Source: Abditibacteriaceae bacterium
Lineage (GTDB): Bacteria; Armatimonadota; Abditibacteriia; Abditibacteriales; Abditibacteriaceae
Assembly (NCBI GenBank): GCA_031372065.1
Contig: JANMKN010000114.1
Location: forward strand, 1-19,350
Reading direction: 5' to 3'
Length of the DNA: 19,350 nucleotides
Shown here: in pieces, positions 3,582 to 19,350 of the stretch
How positions within the stretch are numbered: position 1 is the stretch's first letter
How the letters are laid out: every line of letters starts with the position of its first letter
The notes under the pieces: generated by a model
The model's input: only the letters and a program-made list of their open reading frames with translations
The model's database searches: none
Told to the model about the DNA's origin: nothing
Position numbers and translations under genes: made by a program

Positions 3582-4301
3582 ATGGAGTTCCCGAATCGCG
3601 TGCTGGTGATTGATGATGACCGCGAATTGTGCAAGCTGGTCAAAGAATTTTTGGAGCCGGAATTTCAAGTCTATAGCGTCTCGCGCGGCGATGAAGGCGC
3701 GCGGCGTGCCCAAGATGACAATTTTTCGCTGATTGTGCTGGATGTCATGCTGCCCGGCCTGAGTGGTTTTGAAGTGCTGCGCCAACTGCGCGAGAACAAT
3801 TGCGCCACGCCGGTTTTAATGCTCACCGCGCGCGGCGATGACATAGACCGTATTGTCGGCCTTGAATTAGGTGCCGATGATTATTTGGCGAAGCCTTTCA
3901 ACCCGCGCGAACTAACGGCGCGCATTCACGCCATTTTGCGCCGCGCCCGTCCCGCGCCTTCTGCGGCTGTACGCGCGAAATTTCAATGCGACGATTTGGA
4001 ATTGGATGTTTTGGCGCGCCGCGTGCGTTGCGACAGCCAAACGCTTGATCTAACCGCTGTCGAATTTGATTTGCTCACGCTTTTAGTAAAAAATCTGGGC
4101 GTTGTCGTATCGCGCGATGATTTAGCGAAGCACGCCCTTGACCGCAAATGGACGGCGTATGATCGCAGCATTGATATGCACGTTTCCAATTTGCGCAAGA
4201 AAATCGGCCCCGCACCCGATGGCAGCGAACGCATCAAATCCATCCGCAGCGTAGGTTATGTTTTAGTGAGTGCGGAATACGAAATGCGGAATGCGGAGTA
4301 G
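3582..4301 (+). CDS. cpxR: OmpR/PhoB-family response regulator, CpxR-like
   Basis: Receiver domain (VLVIDDD, LIVLDVMLPG, LMLTARGD, GADDYLAKPF) plus a winged helix (EFDLL, DRSIDMHVSNLRKK, IRSVGY). Likely start is ATG 3582, with TAAACT 7 nt upstream. Confidence 0.9.
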   Translation: MEFPNRVLVIDDDRELCKLVKEFLEPEFQVYSVSRGDEGARRAQDDNFSLIVLDVMLPGLSGFEVLRQLRENNCATPVLMLTARGDDIDRIVGLELGADDYLAKPFNPRELTARIHAILRRARPAPSAAVRAKFQCDDLELDVLARRVRCDSQTLDLTAVEFDLLTLLVKNLGVVVSRDDLAKHALDRKWTAYDRSIDMHVSNLRKKIGPAPDGSERIKSIRSVGYVLVSAEYEMRNAE

Positions 4302-4330
4302 AATTTCGCATTCCGCACTCCACACTCCGC
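4268..4330. repeat. Inverted heptamer tandem repeat (GAATGCG)n / (ATTCCGC)n
   Basis: GAGTGCG GAATACG AAATGCG GAATGCG GAGTAGA, then ATTTCGC ATTCCGC ACTCCAC ACTCCGC. It spans the cpxR stop codon. Confidence 0.75.
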
Positions 4331-4336
4331 GTTTCT

Positions 4337-5698
4337 ATGCGCTCTTTATTTTTCAAAATTTTCCTGTGGTTTTGGCTGACGATGGCGCTTTTGGGCGCGG
4401 CTTTATTTGCCATAACGTGGACGCTACGCGCCGAGCCTTTGGTGCCCACGCAGCACGCATTTTTAAGTGAATCGCTCACGCAGAATGCCAAAATCCTCGT
4501 ATGGCGCTTGCAGACGCGTGGCATGGCGGATGTCAAGGACTACATAAGGCGTATGAGTCAGAAAAACCAAGTGCGCGCTTTGCTTTTCGATGAGACGGGG
4601 CACATTATAGCTGGTGATACATCAGTGGAAGGTGCAAGACAGTTAGCCCTCGCCGCCTCCAAACGCGACGAGGTAGAATTCCATATTTCCGGTGCCGATT
4701 TAATGGCGGCCCGCCGCGCCGTTGCCAGTGATGGCAAAGTCTATGTCTTATTTGCATCAATGCCACGCACTATGCTTTCGGTGCTTCGCGTGCCGTTAAG
4801 CACTCGCGTCCTGCGAATTAGCGCCGTCATTTTCATAGGGAGCTTGGTGTGCTTCGCCTTAGCGCGCTATCTCACCGATCCGGTTGTGAAATTGCGCGCT
4901 GCGACGCGGCGTTTCGCAGAGGGTGATTTATCGGTGCGCGTTTATCCGCAATTGGGCCGGCGGCGCGACGAACTGGCCGATTTAGCGCGCGATTTCGATG
5001 CGATGGCGGCTCAAATCGCCATTTTATTAAATGCACAGCGCCGTTTATTAGGCGACGTTTCACACGAACTGCGCACGCCACTCACGCGCCTGTATTTGGC
5101 TTTGGAATTAGCGCGGCGCCATGCCGGAGACGGCGCGGCGCCAGCTTTAGATCGCATCGAACGCGAAGCCGCGCAACTAAACGAACTTATCGGCCAATTA
5201 TTGATGCTTTCGCGTTTGGAAAGCGGCGAAGCGCGGCCCGCTCCCCTTTTATTTGACCTGTCGGCAGTGCTGCTCGAAGTTGTGCATGACGCACAATTTG
5301 AAGCCGAATCTACGCAGCGCAAAATTCTTTTAGAAGCTAATGAAACTTGCCGAATTCACGGCACGCCGTCCATTTTGCGTAGCGCATTGGAGAATGTCAT
5401 TCGCAACGCGCTACGTTACACACTGAAAAATAGCAGCCTCGAAATCGCGCTGCACTGCGATGAAAAGCACGCCGTTTTAACCGTGCGCGATTACGGCCCC
5501 GGCGTGCCTGACGCGGATTTGACCCAGATTTTTCAGCCGTTTTATCGCGTGGATGATGCCCGTGACCGAGAAGATGGCGGCGCCGGTTTAGGTTTAGCCA
5601 TCGTCGAACGCGCTATCACCTCGCACGGCGGCCAAGTGCGCGCCGAAAATGCGCTGGGCGGCGGTTTGCTCGTTGAAATTCAACTTCCGGTGGCATAA
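4337..5698 (+). CDS. cpxA: Sensor histidine kinase with two TM helices, HAMP, HisKA and HATPase domains; CpxA-like
   Basis: N-terminus MRSLFFKIFLWFWL, HAMP (RRDELADLARDFDAMA), H-box DVSHELRTPL, N-box ENVIRNALRY, G1 DYGPGV, F-box IFQPFYRV, G2 GGAGLGLAI. Confidence 0.9.
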   Translation: MRSLFFKIFLWFWLTMALLGAALFAITWTLRAEPLVPTQHAFLSESLTQNAKILVWRLQTRGMADVKDYIRRMSQKNQVRALLFDETGHIIAGDTSVEGARQLALAASKRDEVEFHISGADLMAARRAVASDGKVYVLFASMPRTMLSVLRVPLSTRVLRISAVIFIGSLVCFALARYLTDPVVKLRAATRRFAEGDLSVRVYPQLGRRRDELADLARDFDAMAAQIAILLNAQRRLLGDVSHELRTPLTRLYLALELARRHAGDGAAPALDRIEREAAQLNELIGQLLMLSRLESGEARPAPLLFDLSAVLLEVVHDAQFEAESTQRKILLEANETCRIHGTPSILRSALENVIRNALRYTLKNSSLEIALHCDEKHAVLTVRDYGPGVPDADLTQIFQPFYRVDDARDREDGGAGLGLAIVERAITSHGGQVRAENALGGGLLVEIQLPVA

Positions 5699-11431: not shown

Positions 11432-13426
11432 CTACTTTTTCGTCCCTACCGCGCACCAGAAGGGCACGGTTTCCGAAAAGTGAATGTTTTCCAAGCCCGC
11501 TTTTTCCATCATGTCTTGAATTTCGGCGCGCGTGAAACGCTGCTCCAACTGCGTCCCAAAGCGGTCGCGCGCGTCGGTGCGCATCGTATAAAAGCTACGG
11601 CCACGATAAATCGCAAGCGGTAAATTTTCGACGTTGCGTCCGGTTTTTTCCAGCAGTTTTGCGCCGCGCGCCAAGGGTAAATAAACGCCCGCCGCTAATG
11701 CAGTGCAAATTGCGTCGCGCACGCCATGCGGCGCCTGTGAAATGGCGCCGCGCCCGATTTCGCTGGCTTGCCATAAAGCGCGATACCATGACGGCTTGTT
11801 ATCAAACGCGTAATACAAATACAGCAAAAACGGCGCGCCCGGTTTTAGTTTTTTTACGCACGATTGCAAGCCCGAAAGCGTGTCCGGCACATGATGCAAC
11901 ACGCCCAGCGAATAACCAAAATCCATCGAATTATCATCTAAGGGAATCACATCCACGCTGGCATAATGAAAGCGGACGTTGCCTGCATCCGCTAAATTTT
12001 TGCGCGCCACATTTAAGGCGTCGTCGCTGGCATCGACGCAATGCAAAACGCCAACGCGCGGCGCTACGCATTGCGCCCAGCGGCCACTACCCGAACCCAA
12101 ATCGAAGCCTTGAGCGTTTTCAGGCAGAGAATCCCACGGAAAAATGCCAAAGTATTGCTCGAAAATTTCGGCGCGTTCGGTTTCGCTTAATTCCGATTGA
12201 TCGTAACGCGTCCACTCGTCGCCAAAACCGGCAACCGTGCCCGCGTCGGCGTTGTTCGTTTGGTTTTCATTCAACAACGTTTGATAAATTTCTTCATAAC
12301 GGCGCGTCACGCTTTGCAGGCTGAAATTGTCTTGAATGCGCGCCCGTGCCGCTTGGCTAAATTGCGTTTTAGCTTGCTCATCCGCTTCGATAAAATGCGC
12401 GATACCTGCAGCCAATTCCGGCGCGTTTTTAATCGGCACCACGATGCCCGCCTCACCAATAATTTGCGCGCTTTCGCCGACATTGGTTGCCACACCTGGC
12501 ACACCGCAAGCCATCGCTTCGCCAAGCACAAGCGGAAACGCTTCGCCATGCGAAGAAGACAAAACCATCACATCCAAAGCCGCCATCAAGCGCGGCATAT
12601 CTTGCCGTTCGCCGAGAAAATGCGTTTGCGCTTCCACGCCGTTTTCGCGTGCCAATTGCACAAGTTCCGCGTTGTCATGGAAGATGCCCGCGCCCGCTAA
12701 AACGAAGTGAACTTCGGGATGTGAATACGCTACGATGTTAGCCGCTTGAAAAAAATTAGAGTGGTCTTTCATGGCGTGCCAACGGCTGAAGAGACCGACT
12801 AACATTGTGTTCTGCGGCACGCCAATTTCTTCGCGCACATCTTGTCGCGCTTGCTGCGAGGGCGCGAATAATTCCATATCGAAACCATTCGGCACGACCC
12901 AGCTTTTGCTGGTATTGTAGCCCGCTTCCCCATGCTGCTGCCGCCCGATTTGCGAAACGTAAATGGTGCCGTCCGGCTGGCCCGAAAAACGTTGGCCTAA
13001 TGTATCGAATAAGCGATTTAATCGCGTTTTAAACAGTTCCTCGTTGCGCGTATTGTGAATGGCCCACACCAATTTTGCGCCTTGCGCGCGCACTTTGCGG
13101 CCCAACAAAGCGGCGAGGTTGCTGTGATACATCCAACCTTGAATCACATCCGGTTTTTCGCGGCGCAAAACGCGTTGTAATTTCCACCACGCGCGCAAAG
13201 TTGTTTTGGGCGTTGGGCAGCTTAAATCCATGTCCAAGGTGTAAACCTTGATGCCCAAATCCTCGACAGCGCCAATCATGTCGCGCTGCCCGCCGCGTCC
13301 CATCAAAGCGACGACAACCGGCTCAAATTTCTCGCGATTTGTGGCGCACAGCAACTTATAAAGCATCATCTCGGCGCCGCCGACATAAAGCCCGATGATG
13401 ATATGCAGAACTTTGGTTTTCTTCAT
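11432..13426 (-). CDS. Fusion of a GT4-family glycosyltransferase and a class I SAM-dependent methyltransferase
   Basis: Likely start is ATG 13426 (MKKTKVLHII), just after the upstream stop. GT4 motifs: GGAEMML, VVPNGFD, KDHSNF, EAFPLVLGEAMACGVP. The C-terminal domain has TVAGFGDEW, DLGSGSGRW, YSLGVLHH. Confidence 0.9.
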   Translation of the reverse strand: MKKTKVLHIIIGLYVGGAEMMLYKLLCATNREKFEPVVVALMGRGGQRDMIGAVEDLGIKVYTLDMDLSCPTPKTTLRAWWKLQRVLRREKPDVIQGWMYHSNLAALLGRKVRAQGAKLVWAIHNTRNEELFKTRLNRLFDTLGQRFSGQPDGTIYVSQIGRQQHGEAGYNTSKSWVVPNGFDMELFAPSQQARQDVREEIGVPQNTMLVGLFSRWHAMKDHSNFFQAANIVAYSHPEVHFVLAGAGIFHDNAELVQLARENGVEAQTHFLGERQDMPRLMAALDVMVLSSSHGEAFPLVLGEAMACGVPGVATNVGESAQIIGEAGIVVPIKNAPELAAGIAHFIEADEQAKTQFSQAARARIQDNFSLQSVTRRYEEIYQTLLNENQTNNADAGTVAGFGDEWTRYDQSELSETERAEIFEQYFGIFPWDSLPENAQGFDLGSGSGRWAQCVAPRVGVLHCVDASDDALNVARKNLADAGNVRFHYASVDVIPLDDNSMDFGYSLGVLHHVPDTLSGLQSCVKKLKPGAPFLLYLYYAFDNKPSWYRALWQASEIGRGAISQAPHGVRDAICTALAAGVYLPLARGAKLLEKTGRNVENLPLAIYRGRSFYTMRTDARDRFGTQLEQRFTRAEIQDMMEKAGLENIHFSETVPFWCAVGTKK

Positions 13427-13428
13427 GC

Positions 13429-14232
13429 TTACGCTTCTGGTTTGCGCGCTACGCAAATGATATAGGGCGATGTTTTGCGATTGGGTTTGATGCGAAGTCC
13501 AGCGCGCTCTAAAAACCAAAACACCATCGAAACCGCTTTCATTAAGGCAAGGCGCACCAAGAAAATTGGCCCCGACGTGTGCTTGGAAAAACTCATGACG
13601 GCCCAGTTGACACTCAGCAAATAATCGCAGCTTTGCACGATTAAACCGGCTTCCTTGTGGGCTTTCGCCAGTGCCTCATCATCCAATGGCACATGGACAT
13701 CATAAACCGTGCGGTCAAGACGCTTTTGCAATTCTCCGACCCAACCGGCCATATTGGGAATTTGCGTAATCATCAGGCCACCGGGCTTGAGAAAACGACT
13801 GAATTTATCAATGCAATCGGCGGTATCGGTGAAATGTTCGACCACGCCAATCGAAACGATGACATCATAAGCGCCCAGCATATCGTCGGGCGGCACGAAA
13901 AAATCGGCATTGGCAATGCGGCCTTTCACGCCCGCTTTATCGAGAATCGCTTGCGCGGTTTCGCAGCCGACATCGGAATAATCTATGCCCGACACATCGA
14001 AGCCAAACTGCAAAGCAAAATACGGCAGCCAGCGCGAACGCCCGCAGCCGATTTCCAAAAGTTTTTGCCCGCGCGTGTTTTGCTTTTTGAACAACTGCGC
14101 GAAATAGCGATGAAAACCACGATAAACGTGGTTTCCCAAATGTCGGATATGTGGGTTAATCGGCCCCGGAATCGGCTTGTTTTCCCAACGGCGATCCCAA
14201 AAGGCCACGCCCGCCTTGTCTGTCTGCTCCAT
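13429..14232 (-). CDS. Class I SAM-dependent methyltransferase
   Basis: LLEIGCG (motif I), VSGIDYS, YDVIVSIGVVEHF, LKPGG. Confidence 0.9.
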   Translation of the reverse strand: MEQTDKAGVAFWDRRWENKPIPGPINPHIRHLGNHVYRGFHRYFAQLFKKQNTRGQKLLEIGCGRSRWLPYFALQFGFDVSGIDYSDVGCETAQAILDKAGVKGRIANADFFVPPDDMLGAYDVIVSIGVVEHFTDTADCIDKFSRFLKPGGLMITQIPNMAGWVGELQKRLDRTVYDVHVPLDDEALAKAHKEAGLIVQSCDYLLSVNWAVMSFSKHTSGPIFLVRLALMKAVSMVFWFLERAGLRIKPNRKTSPYIICVARKPEA

Positions 14233-15186: not shown

Positions 15187-16535
15187 TGCTCTTTGCGTCT
15201 CACATTGCTCCGCACATAAAACGCAGTCGAATCAATATCGAGGCGCGCTTTCACCACGAACACTAAAACCACATTCCACAAAATCAAACTGAGCGAAGCC
15301 GCCCACGCCGCGCCTTCGATGCCCCAACGCGGAATGAGCAGCGCGCTTAAAATTCCGTTGGCTAAAGCGCCGCAGCCGATGCCTTTGGCGGCGTCTTTTT
15401 CGTGGCCGGTCATCATCAAAAGCAAGCCTACCGAACCCATCGCCGCGTTCACTAACTGGCCGATGCAAAGCACAATCAAAGCCGTTTGCCCGCGCGCGAA
15501 TTCGCCTCCGGCCAGCTTCAAAATCGGCGTGCCGAAAGCCATTAAAATCAGCGTCAGCGGGAGCGACAAAAATAACAGGGCGCGGGCACTTTTGGTGACG
15601 GTGTTTTGCAATGCTTTGATGTTGCCCATAGTATAAAGACTGGCCGCCGAAGGCGCTAAAACGGCGTTGACGGCTGTAACCACAAGGCCAATCACGCCCG
15701 AAAGCCATTTTGCCATGCCATAAATGCCCGCCGCCTTCACGCCTTGCACAGCACCTAATATCAACATATCGGCCTGCGAAAATGTGATGTGCAGCAAATT
15801 CAGCGTGAGTAGCGGCCACGCACTTTCCAACCAAACTGGCGCTTCTTGTCGGGCCGCGCCTGTCATTTCTGCGGGCAGTTTTTTTCGTAAAACCAAAGCG
15901 CCAAGAGCAAACGCGGTTAGTGTAGATAAGACATTAAGTGCCATCGCGCCCTGCGGTGAAAATTGATTTCCCCATTGCCAATGCGCCGTGCCGATAAAAG
16001 CCAGCAAAAGCAGTGGTTGCACCAAAGTTTCGGGCCACAAACCGCTAACGACTTCTCGAAAGCCACGCAATGTGGCCTGCCGCAAGCGCGCCTGCGCCAT
16101 AAGAGGCACTAAAAGCAGCGCCACCAAAAATGTCGCGCGATTTTGCAATTCATTTTGCAAAACGAACCACGCGGCGCACGCTACAAGGAGCGCGATGGCA
16201 GTGCCCGTCAACAAAACAGTTCGCGTGGCCCACACTAAAATGCCGCGCGTTAAAGGCCAATTTTTCTGCGTGAGGTAAACCGCAATTTGCCGCACGACAA
16301 GCGTATCAAGGCCAAAAAGCGCGGGCGTAATGAGAAACGTCACCCACGCCATCGCGTAGGCATAAGCGCCATAAGCCGATGCGCCCAACCAGCGCGCCAA
16401 TAAAATGCTGATGACAAACGACAGCCCAGCAAAAGTCGCCGTGAGCAGAAACGTGCCCGCCGCGCTTTTGGCCGAGCGATTCTGCATTTGATTCTTGGCG
16501 CCTTGCAGACCTTTGGCGCGTAGCGCGCTCATCAT
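15183..16535 (-). CDS. wzx: Wzx-type polysaccharide flippase (MOP/PST exporter)
   Basis: Multi-TM protein with LARWLGASAYGAY, ADMLILG, AGIYG, LIPRWGIEGAAWA. Likely start is ATG 16535, overlapping the upstream TGA (ATGA). Confidence 0.88.
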   Translation of the reverse strand: MMSALRAKGLQGAKNQMQNRSAKSAAGTFLLTATFAGLSFVISILLARWLGASAYGAYAYAMAWVTFLITPALFGLDTLVVRQIAVYLTQKNWPLTRGILVWATRTVLLTGTAIALLVACAAWFVLQNELQNRATFLVALLLVPLMAQARLRQATLRGFREVVSGLWPETLVQPLLLLAFIGTAHWQWGNQFSPQGAMALNVLSTLTAFALGALVLRKKLPAEMTGAARQEAPVWLESAWPLLTLNLLHITFSQADMLILGAVQGVKAAGIYGMAKWLSGVIGLVVTAVNAVLAPSAASLYTMGNIKALQNTVTKSARALLFLSLPLTLILMAFGTPILKLAGGEFARGQTALIVLCIGQLVNAAMGSVGLLLMMTGHEKDAAKGIGCGALANGILSALLIPRWGIEGAAWAASLSLILWNVVLVFVVKARLDIDSTAFYVRSNVRRKEQ

Positions 16536-18013
16536 GGCAAAGCCATTTTCGAATCGCGCGGCGCCGCGCATAATTTATTGGCGAAAAAATCGCGTAGCGC
16601 GTGCGCCATTAAATCGTGACCGTGCGCGTTGATGTGGCCCGTCCACGGCAGCGTATTCATAAAACCAAACGGCGGCTGATGCGTTTTTTGATAGTCCTCG
16701 GCCACGCGCGCTCGCATGAGAATCAAAGGAATCTCAAGTTTCAGGCAACCTTTTGTCAATTCGCGTTCTTCCTGCGTGACGGGTTTCAGATTCGCTGCTG
16801 CCATATCGTAAGATGGCATATGCAAAATTACCAAGCGCGGATATTTTTCTTTTAATTGTTGCAGCGTCCAATTCATCGAACGCGCTACCATTTGCGGATT
16901 TTTCATGTTGGCATAAGCAGCGCGTTGCACTTCGTTGCCTTTAGCCGCCGCGCGTTCGGCAGAGCCTTCGCCGTTGGCATCATTACCTGTTCCGACTCCG
17001 TTCATCAGTTGCCAGCGACTGAAACTCCAATCGAACAACGCCAAATCCCGAATGTGCAATTTGCGCAAAATCTGATAGCCGCGCCCCCGACTTTTGCCCT
17101 GCCATTGCGTCACGATTTTAAAGCCCTCGTTTTGCGGCTCGTAGCGAATTTCGTGAATCGGGCTAAAAGTCAATTTCCAGCGCTCGTCTTCGATGAAAAT
17201 CACAGTCCAATCGGGCTGAAATAGTTTTTGTGGTTCTCGCACAATGCTTTGAGGAAAAGCATCCGCTAAGAGAAATCGGTTGAGGCGAATTAATGCCCCG
17301 CCCTGCGGATTTTGTGAAAGTAACTTTTTCGTTTCCTCGCTTAGAGCAACGTGTTCAAATCGCTCTTTTGTATAAATTGGCTCGAATTGAAGTATAAGAT
17401 TTAACTCACGGGCCACTAACTGCCGAATTGCCTTTGACTCAAAATTCGACTCTTGCCCCATTTCCAAGATTTTCTCTAACGAATAAGTAAAATTTTCTCT
17501 AATATATTTCGATAAAGGCTTGTCATCTTGCAATTTACTCAATAGGCCAGAAATATCTTTCAAGTCTTCAGCATTCAACAAAGCAACGCCATTTTTGTAT
17601 TCGTCCGCCAAAGCAACATGAAAAGCAGGCGTGGCACCGACACGCCCGCCATTGAGAACGCGCACGCGGCAATTTGCCGATGTATCCAGCAAAGTTTGCA
17701 AGCGCGCGGGCAACGTTTGGGGCAAATCCATCTGGCGCGCTTCGATGTTGGAATCGCCCAAAATCAAAATGCGCGTTTCATCTTTGGGCTTGTTTTGCAA
17801 TGCGCCTTCACGGAAACCGAATTCGTTATAGATAACATGGCCGCGCCCTTCGGTTGTGCTAAGGCCGCGCGCATTTTTCGGCAGCCAACCGAGGCCGGGC
17901 ACATCGTCCGACACAATCGGCACGGTGAAAAAAACGCGCAACACCATTTCCCAGATTAAAAGGCTGAGAAACAGCGCAGCGCCCACTTTGGTGACGTTTT
18001 TCAAAATTCTCAT
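16532..18013 (-). CDS. Membrane-anchored SGNH/GDSL-family protein (AlgJ/AlgX/PatB-like partner of the MBOAT) with a 122-aa internal insert
   Basis: ATG 18013 overlaps the MBOAT stop (TGATG). It has an N-terminal TM (EMVLR), NEFGFR, block I ILILGDS, block II VLNGGRVG, FQPDWTVIF and a C-terminal GHINAHGH. Confidence 0.82.
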   Translation of the reverse strand: MRILKNVTKVGAALFLSLLIWEMVLRVFFTVPIVSDDVPGLGWLPKNARGLSTTEGRGHVIYNEFGFREGALQNKPKDETRILILGDSNIEARQMDLPQTLPARLQTLLDTSANCRVRVLNGGRVGATPAFHVALADEYKNGVALLNAEDLKDISGLLSKLQDDKPLSKYIRENFTYSLEKILEMGQESNFESKAIRQLVARELNLILQFEPIYTKERFEHVALSEETKKLLSQNPQGGALIRLNRFLLADAFPQSIVREPQKLFQPDWTVIFIEDERWKLTFSPIHEIRYEPQNEGFKIVTQWQGKSRGRGYQILRKLHIRDLALFDWSFSRWQLMNGVGTGNDANGEGSAERAAAKGNEVQRAAYANMKNPQMVARSMNWTLQQLKEKYPRLVILHMPSYDMAAANLKPVTQEERELTKGCLKLEIPLILMRARVAEDYQKTHQPPFGFMNTLPWTGHINAHGHDLMAHALRDFFANKLCAAPRDSKMALP

Positions 18014-19350
18014 CAAAATTGAAAGTAAATAAACGGCGCCGAAACAGTGGCGGCCAAGAAGAAAATGCCGAAAATCCACACAAAAAGTGTTACCAAATGC
18101 GCGAATTTTTCAGGACGTAACACGAAAACTGTCTTGCGTTTTTCCAGCCATGCTCCAAAGGCGTGCGCGGCGATAACAACCGGCAGAATCACGAGCAGAG
18201 GCCCGAAAATCCATGTGAGTTCGCCGTTTTCGAGGCCACTCATGCGTCGCACCATCAGCCATGCATGATCGAATTGTTGCGAGCGAAAAAACACCCAACC
18301 ATAGCACACAAAAAGGTAAGTCAGCGCCCATGAAACCACTTTTATGGCCGCACTTTTTTGCAAGATGGCATAAGTTTTTTCATTCGTTACCTTTTTCAAA
18401 AAAGCGGTATACGCTTTGTGAATCGCCAAGCCCAAACCGTGCAAAATTCCCCAAATCACAAAGTTCCAACTGGCGCCGTGCCACAGGCCGCCGAGTGTCA
18501 TGGTGAGGAGCAAATTGCCGTAAGTGCGAAAGGTGCCTTTGCGATTGCCGCCCAGCGAAATATACAAATAATCGCGCAGCCAACTGGACAATGAAATGTG
18601 CCAGCGACGCCAAAAATCGGTGAGATTATTGGCTCCATACGGCATCCGAAAATTTACCGGCAAATCGAAGCCGAGAATTTTCGCAAGGCCCATCGCCATG
18701 TCGGAATAACCGGAAAAATCGCAGAAAATCTGTATCGAATAGGCAATAACCGCTTGCCAAATACTGAGCGCCGAGTAATTTTCAGGATTGCGAAAAACCG
18801 TGTCTACAAAAGGCGACATATGATCGGCGATGACTAATTTTTTGGTCATGCCAAACAAGAAAAGCTGCCCGCCTTGCACGAAATTGGGCCACGTTAAAAA
18901 GATGGCGCGTTCGATTTGCGGTAGAAAATCGGCGGGGCGAATAATCGGTCCGGCAATCATGCGTGGAAAGAAAAATATGAAAAGCGCAAAGTGCTTCCAG
19001 TTGGTGTAGGGCTGCAATTTGCCCCTATAAATATCAATGCAATAACTCATCGCCTCGAAGACGAAAAACGAAATGCCGATCGGCAAAATGATATGCGCGG
19101 TTGACAGATGAAATCCCATTGACCCACTGAGTGCATTTACGCTTTCGATGAAGAAGTTGAGGTATTTAAAAACGCATAAAATGCCGAGATTAACGAAGAT
19201 GTCGAGCGTTACCAATCGCTTACGCAAAGGTTCGGGCGCCGCGCCGATTTTCAAGCCCATCCAGAAATCGAAGATTGACGTAAAGCCAATTAGCGCCAAA
19301 AACCGCCAGTCGAAATAACCATAAAACGCCATGCCGCCGAGCAGCAGCCA
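18013..19350 (-). CDS. MBOAT-family O-acyltransferase (AlgI/PatA/DltB-like), 5'-truncated by the window edge
   Basis: LPIGISFFVF, FFPRMIAGPI, KKLVIAD, QIFCDFSGYSDMA, FWRRWHISLSSWLRDYLYISLGG, GGLWHGASWNF (catalytic His), C-terminus FIYFQF. The frame is open to base 19350. Confidence 0.95.
   Translation of the reverse strand, partial: WLLLGGMAFYGYFDWRFLALIGFTSIFDFWMGLKIGAAPEPLRKRLVTLDIFVNLGILCVFKYLNFFIESVNALSGSMGFHLSTAHIILPIGISFFVFEAMSYCIDIYRGKLQPYTNWKHFALFIFFFPRMIAGPIIRPADFLPQIERAIFLTWPNFVQGGQLFLFGMTKKLVIADHMSPFVDTVFRNPENYSALSIWQAVIAYSIQIFCDFSGYSDMAMGLAKILGFDLPVNFRMPYGANNLTDFWRRWHISLSSWLRDYLYISLGGNRKGTFRTYGNLLLTMTLGGLWHGASWNFVIWGILHGLGLAIHKAYTAFLKKVTNEKTYAILQKSAAIKVVSWALTYLFVCYGWVFFRSQQFDHAWLMVRRMSGLENGELTWIFGPLLVILPVVIAAHAFGAWLEKRKTVFVLRPEKFAHLVTLFVWIFGIFFLAATVSAPFIYFQF

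Follow-up and report, generated by a model that had tools for sequence, protein, structure and literature searches.

A low-GC domain inserted in frame in a GDSL-type protein of an Abditibacteriaceae bacterium is probably a worn copy of an ISL3-ended MITE

Results

We investigated a stretch of 19,350 nt (hereafter the window), i.e. contig JANMKN010000114.1 of an Abditibacteriaceae bacterium (GCA_031372065.1, genome labelled G000), in which a gene on the minus strand (16532..18013) carries an insert of 122 codons. We consider, with a probability of about 0.85, that this insert is a worn copy of a non-autonomous ISL3-type MITE, whose fully open frame encodes a predicted six-helix domain and which landed in frame in its host gene. 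Judged by sequence comparison, the module to which the insert belongs presents the features of a MITE: inverted repeats, a duplication of fixed length, a size of 358-361 bp, no transposase, a dispersed distribution and empty alleles.

The insert and its host gene

The host gene is a 493-aa ORF, in which codons 1-140 and 263-493 correspond to the host and codons 141-262 to the insert. Its product (P0002) is likely a membrane-anchored SGNH/GDSL-type protein, the O-acyltransferase partner of the adjacent MBOAT. The GDS motif at host residues 86-88 is invariant across the four orthologues; P0002 gave no match in Pfam, and the orthologue of G010 matched Lipase_GDSL_2 with an E-value of 8.6e-6, under the cut-off. 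The MBOAT O-acyltransferase gene (18013..19350, minus strand; PF03062, E 2e-30) has a stop codon that overlaps the start of the host gene (TGATG), and the same neighbour is present in G002 and G010. By analogy with MBOAT-SGNH pairs such as AlgI/AlgJ, we take the two genes to be an O-acylation module. The model of the full-length host protein, with a pLDDT of 48, was uninformative. Elsewhere in the window, short degenerate tandem repeats (ECGMRNSTPHSAFRIPHS on the minus strand) are located between response regulator and kinase genes at 4270-4340, and tandem repeats resembling them lie outside the window, in an oxidoreductase ORF of G000 (L001:2269-3771). The ORF at 11432-13519 (minus strand) resembles, by eye, a glycosyltransferase-methyltransferase fusion of a polysaccharide cluster.

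An earlier note on this DNA had described a low-GC, in-frame insert of 122 aa at 17228-17593 (minus strand). The translation is indeed as described, and the insert follows codon 140 of the ORF. Its GC and GC3 are 0.393 and 0.369, compared to 0.531 and 0.607 upstream and 0.504 and 0.565 downstream in the same gene. Among 7,948 stretches of 366 nt from an unfiltered set of long ORFs of G000, a GC3 this low was found in 0.65%, and a GC3 deficit this large relative to the own gene in 0.15%.

The orthologue search covered 41 genomes and found the gene in G001 and G002, of the same genus (78% and 83% identity to the host), and in G010, of the same family (37%). All three orthologues lack exactly 122 residues, and they read EYK/ELFQPDW (G001), DYK/KLFQPDW (G002) and EYQ/AVFQPDW (G010) across the empty site (slash). 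Each of them aligns to host residues 1-140 and then from 259-263 onward, with nothing between, and the flanks of the insert are ordinary host sequence, 75-83% identical to the congeners. The empty-site orthologue of G002 (L004:1329-1505) presents a frameshift near codon 430. The divergence of the window copy, which is high for a young insertion, would suit an insert ancestral in the host gene and precisely lost in the relatives. However, such a history needs a precise loss in G001, in G002 and in the family-level relative G010, and the GC3 of the insert is unadjusted to its host, unlike that of a genus-wide copy in MurJ (0.61 vs 0.68 in its host, i.e. adjusted), which makes ancestry highly improbable.

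With the insert read as an acquired MITE copy, its description as recently acquired holds in a relative sense only: the insertion postdates the split from the congeners, but the host gene already shows a dS of 0.94-1.16 to theirs and the ends of the element are worn. No other copy exceeds 46-48% identity to the window copy, which sits on a long branch. This branch exceeds the expectation for an insertion younger than the genus, which points to either an unsampled donor lineage or fast evolution after insertion.

A family of modules in unrelated proteins

Using the insert alone as query, we found 1,683 representatives of 50%-identity protein clusters at E ≤ 0.001. The Pfam scan covered 147 of the best 150 among them (all but P0019, which is very long, and P0003 and P0004, which were examined separately), and 66 of these 147, tallied by hand, show a Pfam match outside the module. 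About 50 distinct Pfam host families, cytoplasmic and membrane alike, were recognised, including MurJ, OPT, LptE, KaiC, NACHT, P-II, MraY, RAMP, SIR2, WD40, thioredoxin, PTR2 and HlyD; further hosts at genomic loci are MlaD, an FAD oxidoreductase, MFS (two sites), ABC-2, NuoJ, CstA, heparinase and TMEM260. The proposal of a mobile protein-domain element is supported as to a mobile unit in unrelated proteins, but the mobility is likely that of a DNA element, an ISL3-ended MITE, and not of the protein. Three findings that would speak against such a unit were sought, namely homologues with the segment, confinement to a single family and host-like codon usage, and none was obtained.

In the phylum of the window, 73 of 301 genomes carry the module, with no internal stop in it among the matches listed for these genomes. 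Carriers were also named among Acidobacteria-group, Nitrospirae, cyanobacterial, Verrucomicrobia, Planctomycetota and Gammaproteobacteria genomes, together with one archaeon, of the Methanotrichaceae, and all 30 genomes picked as carriers contain 1-11 matches each. The motif ERF...RLNR, which the earlier note had mentioned, turned out to be a genuine family signature. Two Asn, one Arg, one Phe and the Tyr-Pro pair are 81-97% conserved over 203 copies. The module was found within long ORFs of three viral contigs (L047-L049), and no match was found in the plasmids searched.

Clustering of 209 full-length copies by flank similarity, partial and split copies being dropped, gave 101 host sites. The ORF runs for more than 30 aa beyond the module on both sides at 88 sites, the remaining 13 having at most 30 residues on one side. 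At 68 of the 101 sites, the GC3 of the module is below that of its host; the shortfall is 0.15 or more at 12 sites and an excess of this size occurs at one, a pattern that fits repeated arrival from AT-richer DNA or a relaxed codon bias. Copies are somewhat more alike within a genome than between genomes (40% vs 32%; 59 and 319 pairs), which fits an old, lineage-specific spread.

G000 holds a paralogous insert. This second copy (L001:6202-6567, minus strand, contig C210 of G000) is located near the C-terminus of MurJ, is common to all three congeners and is 31% identical to the window copy. Two copies occur in the same MurJ region in other families of the phylum (L009, L028, L033, L040). A weak, apparently shortened relative (E 0.0015) was also seen in G000 at residues ~770-850 of a 947-aa protein (C157, ORF from 10048, plus strand), which may be an S8 peptidase. 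At L202 (P0008), six module copies stand in tandem with 78-85% DNA identity.

Terminal inverted repeats, target duplication and the ISL3 link

The best-preserved copies are 361 bp long, with inverted ends of ~26 bp and an 8-bp target duplication. Their terminal inverted repeats are self-complementary at up to 15/16 positions and read in frame as GSSLF... and ...YPxEIAKS. A length of 361 bp is the commonest (55 of the 101 sites) and, with 8 bp added, makes 123 codons, a frame preservation that is partly by construction because element lengths were read at in-frame positions. Stops are present in five of the six frames and one frame is open in 16/16 best copies.

At the 10 best-ended sites, with ends optimised within one codon, the identity of the k-mers just outside the element peaks at k = 8, with 0.64 compared to 0.29 for shuffled pairs (p 0.0005) and at most 0.40 for other k. 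With unoptimised ends at all 101 sites, the identity at k = 8 is 0.37 vs 0.26 in the control; of the in-frame control lengths, k = 5 gives 0.30 and k = 11 gives 0.31 vs 0.26, the latter being also above control, though less than k = 8. With the same unoptimised ends, flanks match at 6 or more of 8 positions at 10 of the 101 sites, for a control mean of 0.76. The duplications are richer in AT than the flanks (58% vs 51%, 16 sites), and the target in the window is an A-run. Synonymous positions of the module vary freely (codon-position conservation, 64 sites); a reading drawn from this free variation, that the module has no DNA ends, was overturned by the ends present in the best-preserved metagenomic copies.

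Inverted ends of this kind with 8-bp repeats are typical of ISL3. A pattern search for the end motif led to eight elements with PF01610 transposase sequence in G128, G257 and G294, most of them decayed, which share the ends of the module and read there as GSSLFCVG and YYPHEIAR/YYPHQIARS. A scoring matrix that uses these eight elements only is positive at the unoptimised module ends at 30/101 sites on the left and 60/101 on the right, and at 26 other in-frame offsets in 0-1 of 101. The generation of 8-bp repeats by ISL3 members is stated in the part of PMC3469429 that deals with them. The conserved terminal motifs of the module are best read as transposon ends in frame.

An origin of the module interior from the ISL3 transposase was tried and rejected: in six frames of 34 ISL3 loci the domain profile gave no match under E 3.5, and the DNA profile gave nothing.

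Several other elements were observed with these ends. The exact end motif occurs in 29 stretches of viral contigs, one of which is a paired element with a duplication (L324). At L364:65-532 (G128:C21), a methyltransferase-like ORF runs at its 3' end through an ISL3 left end, which is read as GSSLFCVGSH, a naturally occurring illustration of the N-terminal motif of the module. G128 also contains a different MITE family of 293-312 bp with the same ends (L289, L293, L294, L295, L365); three of these five are fully open in one orientation, but adding 8 to their lengths gives no multiple of three. Such ends also flank non-coding elements in G307 (L355:878-1082, contig C39; 205 bp, with an 8/8 duplication) and, with palindromic cargo, in G323 (L358-L363). 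Module-type ends appear to capture varied interiors.

Regarding mobility, the best-preserved copy is located in G307 (C17:1033-1393) and its genome-mates are 67-69% identical. Copies at different sites share at most ~74% DNA identity, and neither a young burst nor near-identical copies were found among the copies compared, G000 included. No ISL3 match was found in G307, and neither a well-preserved family end nor a transposase with matching ends was found in G000. The single full ISL3 element found in G000 (C306:2437-4189, 1,753 bp) carries ends that belong to a different subgroup, and its transposase is split over two ORFs. The flanks of this element are inverted rather than direct, as they would be if it were nested in another repeat.

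Ends of the window copy

The boundaries 17228-17593 given by the earlier note stand for the span of 122 codons; the element proper occupies 17233..17590 (minus strand), 358 bp, and together with one 8-bp duplication makes up the 366 nt. These bounds come from the family alignment and from P0062, the closest relative of the window copy (45% identity), which aligned from G2 to P121. The element, one codon shorter than the usual family length, has an open frame running GVALLNAED...AFPQSIVRE; the stops per frame, counted on 17232-17590, are 0/9/7/4/4/11, so that only one frame is open.

Both terminal inverted repeats are degenerate. The left one (17565..17590, minus strand) reads GVALLNAE where the canonical end reads GSSLFCVG; it matches the family end at 8/16 bases, counted by hand, and, scored with a matrix made only from the ends of ISL3-transposase-bearing elements, it ranks among the host-gene windows between percentiles 95 and 99. 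With the same matrix, the right one (17233..17258, minus strand; FPQSIVRE for canonical YPHEIARS) lies close to the 99th percentile or exceeds it in three neighbouring registers, and it is the best-scoring window of the gene against the ISL3 right end of G128. Since its ends are worn, the window copy is assigned mainly by family homology.

The likely 8-bp target duplication consists of a left copy at 17591..17598 (minus strand; ACAAAAAT, 6/8 vs the empty site of G002) and a right copy at 17225..17232 (minus strand; CACAAAAA, 5/8 vs the same site). The two 8-mers agree at 4/8 positions in register and at 7/8 when shifted by one base. The right one contains, one base out of register, the 7-bp direct repeat already reported, whose copies, at a distance of 367 nt, occupy 17592-17598 and 17225-17231. 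Alone, this repeat says little, as its right copy ends in bases that belong to the host; its position, where the 8-bp duplication of the family is expected, makes it more telling, and it is likely a remnant of the target duplication of the window copy. The shift of register could have come about by the gain of one base in the CC run and the loss of one in the A-run. The local repeat search returned only pairs of chance size. No joint across the insert was found in four DNA runs from one study, and one X4 contig, with four differences, covers 17155-17356 and hence spans the right junction.

Worn ends, the long branch, the low GC3 and junctions lying in an A-run are also what one would see if the family is a MITE but this particular copy came by recombination or slippage at the A-run, from a decayed copy in foreign AT-rich DNA, and not by a transposase. 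Against this route, the insert stops to the codon at the two ends of the family with a duplication remnant where expected, and on either side of it the sequence is ordinary for the host, with 75-83% identity to the congeners; we regard it as unlikely and retain transposition.

Fold and selection of the encoded domain

The suggestion that the insert is alpha-helical agrees with the AlphaFold2 model of the module (37-row alignment), which consists of six helices with a pLDDT of 90.4. The only bridge residues in this model are 11 and 117, and for this reason the two ends of the domain are predicted to adjoin. No significant profile match was found in Pfam, NCBIfam or PDB sequences, the one Pfam match at E 0.02 being below the cut-off, and no significant fold match in Foldseek PDB, Foldseek viral or VIA-align wide (best Z 4.4); the ESM Atlas gave weak unnamed matches only. 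The lack of a fold match does not prove a new fold.

For copies at different host sites the dN/dS is 0.19-0.52 (11/11 pairs), and for copies at the same site 0.05-0.40 (5/5 pairs), values that lean low because the pairs were hand-picked as the best DNA matches among copies found by protein profile. Judging from these ratios, the module is under purifying selection (dN/dS ~0.2-0.5).

A domain with a function of its own, e.g. a binding or interaction module kept for the benefit of the host, with the transposon origin as mere history, is a rival reading. The conserved Asn pair, Arg, Phe and Tyr-Pro (81-97% over 203 copies), the presence of the MurJ copy in all four members of the genus, with a dN/dS near 0.05-0.12 in its closest pairs, and tandem arrays of up to six copies (P0008) agree with it. 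Nevertheless, the hosts (NuoJ, MurJ, KaiC, P-II, MraY, RAMP, MFS, WD40) have no common pathway or compartment, close relatives manage without the insert, the conserved terminal motifs are transposon ends in frame, and maintenance of the fold alone would yield purifying selection. We hold this function possible but doubtful, and a tolerated passenger, whose fold serves the survival of the element and not the host, is the most likely reading.

Precise in-frame insertion in essential proteins could be expected of a segment that is cut out of the transcript or of the protein, in the manner of a non-canonical intron or an intein. An intein carries an N-terminal C/S and a C-terminal HN/HQ before C/S/T. 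The insert, as had been noted, is not one: it has neither Hint fold nor splice-junction residues nor homing nuclease, and it has DNA ends and a duplication. No Hint match was obtained in Pfam or NCBIfam, the model is all-helical, junction residues are unconserved outside the element ends, synonymous positions are free to vary and RNA folding of the window copy gave z = -0.42, i.e. no stable fold. Removal is therefore very hard to credit.

Discussion

For the tolerated passenger we propose the following course. An ISL3 DDE transposase, acting in trans, would move the element and duplicate 8 bp of the target; in the window, insertion would have taken place at an A-rich pair of codons in the host gene, in the element's single open phase. 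As 361 + 8 (here 358 + 8) is a multiple of three, one genic landing in six, counting strand and phase, would be read through. The domain would then bulge from a surface loop, with its predicted ends together, and leave the host working; in the window it would fold independently, within the loop that precedes core strand three of the SGNH fold and that, from general SGNH topology, presumably points away from the catalytic serine. The fold of the passenger would be kept by selection on the host protein while the DNA ends decay, and copies outside genes or out of phase would be lost. Because copies at unrelated sites are joined by a dN/dS well below 1, new insertions would come from copies already in genes.

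In a broader reading, towards which we lean only slightly, the module would represent a gene-dwelling transposon class, an ISL3-ended MITE with an own, unseen fold as camouflage, spread across bacterial phyla and archaea, and a major unrecognised source of inserted domains (>1,600 clusters), some of them later used by the host.

Whether selfish DNA creates lasting protein domains has been an open question since the Rickettsia elements, and the review PMC10969869, in the part that treats them, calls their contribution unexplored. With its ends defined, its transposase family named, empty alleles, a confident structure model and selection that can be measured, the present family allows this question to be tested on a large scale. 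It also accounts for the unannotated gaps of 120 residues by which Pfam domains are interrupted in many metagenomic proteins, and constitutes a natural frame-preserving domain-insertion system. No description of the family was found in the literature searched, which comprised few subscription journals and main texts without supplements.

Comparison with known systems

Inteins are likewise in-frame parasitic inserts of many host proteins, with a Hint fold and a homing nuclease. The ISL3 insertion sequences (PF01610, NF033550) and their derivatives share with the module the ~26-bp ends and the 8-bp duplication, the latter as given in the ISL3 part of PMC3469429. The module differs from them in that it has no transposase, its interior is unlike ISL3 loci in any frame, and it persists within genes rather than disrupting them.

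The intragenic repeats ERIC, BOX and RUP are also small, with open frames that fuse with host ORFs, but in the portion of PMC3184786 devoted to them they are described as restricted to narrow taxa and as encoding short peptides whose stability is unclear. The module, in contrast, persists genus-wide (MurJ) and keeps its predicted fold.

The closest known system is that of the Rickettsia palindromic elements (RPEs); the module works alike but is not a member. RPEs are, according to the section of PMC10969869 concerned, non-autonomous repeats located in frame in unrelated genes, where they encode a conserved peptide. The same section gives them a size of ~150 bp and reports one genus, whereas the module has ~361 bp and occurs in several phyla and in an archaeon. 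RPEs form a palindromic hairpin; the module is non-palindromic and, in the window copy, has no stable RNA fold (z -0.42). Finally, the module, unlike RPEs, encodes a predicted globular domain of ~120 aa under apparent purifying selection, and its ends can be assigned to a transposase family.
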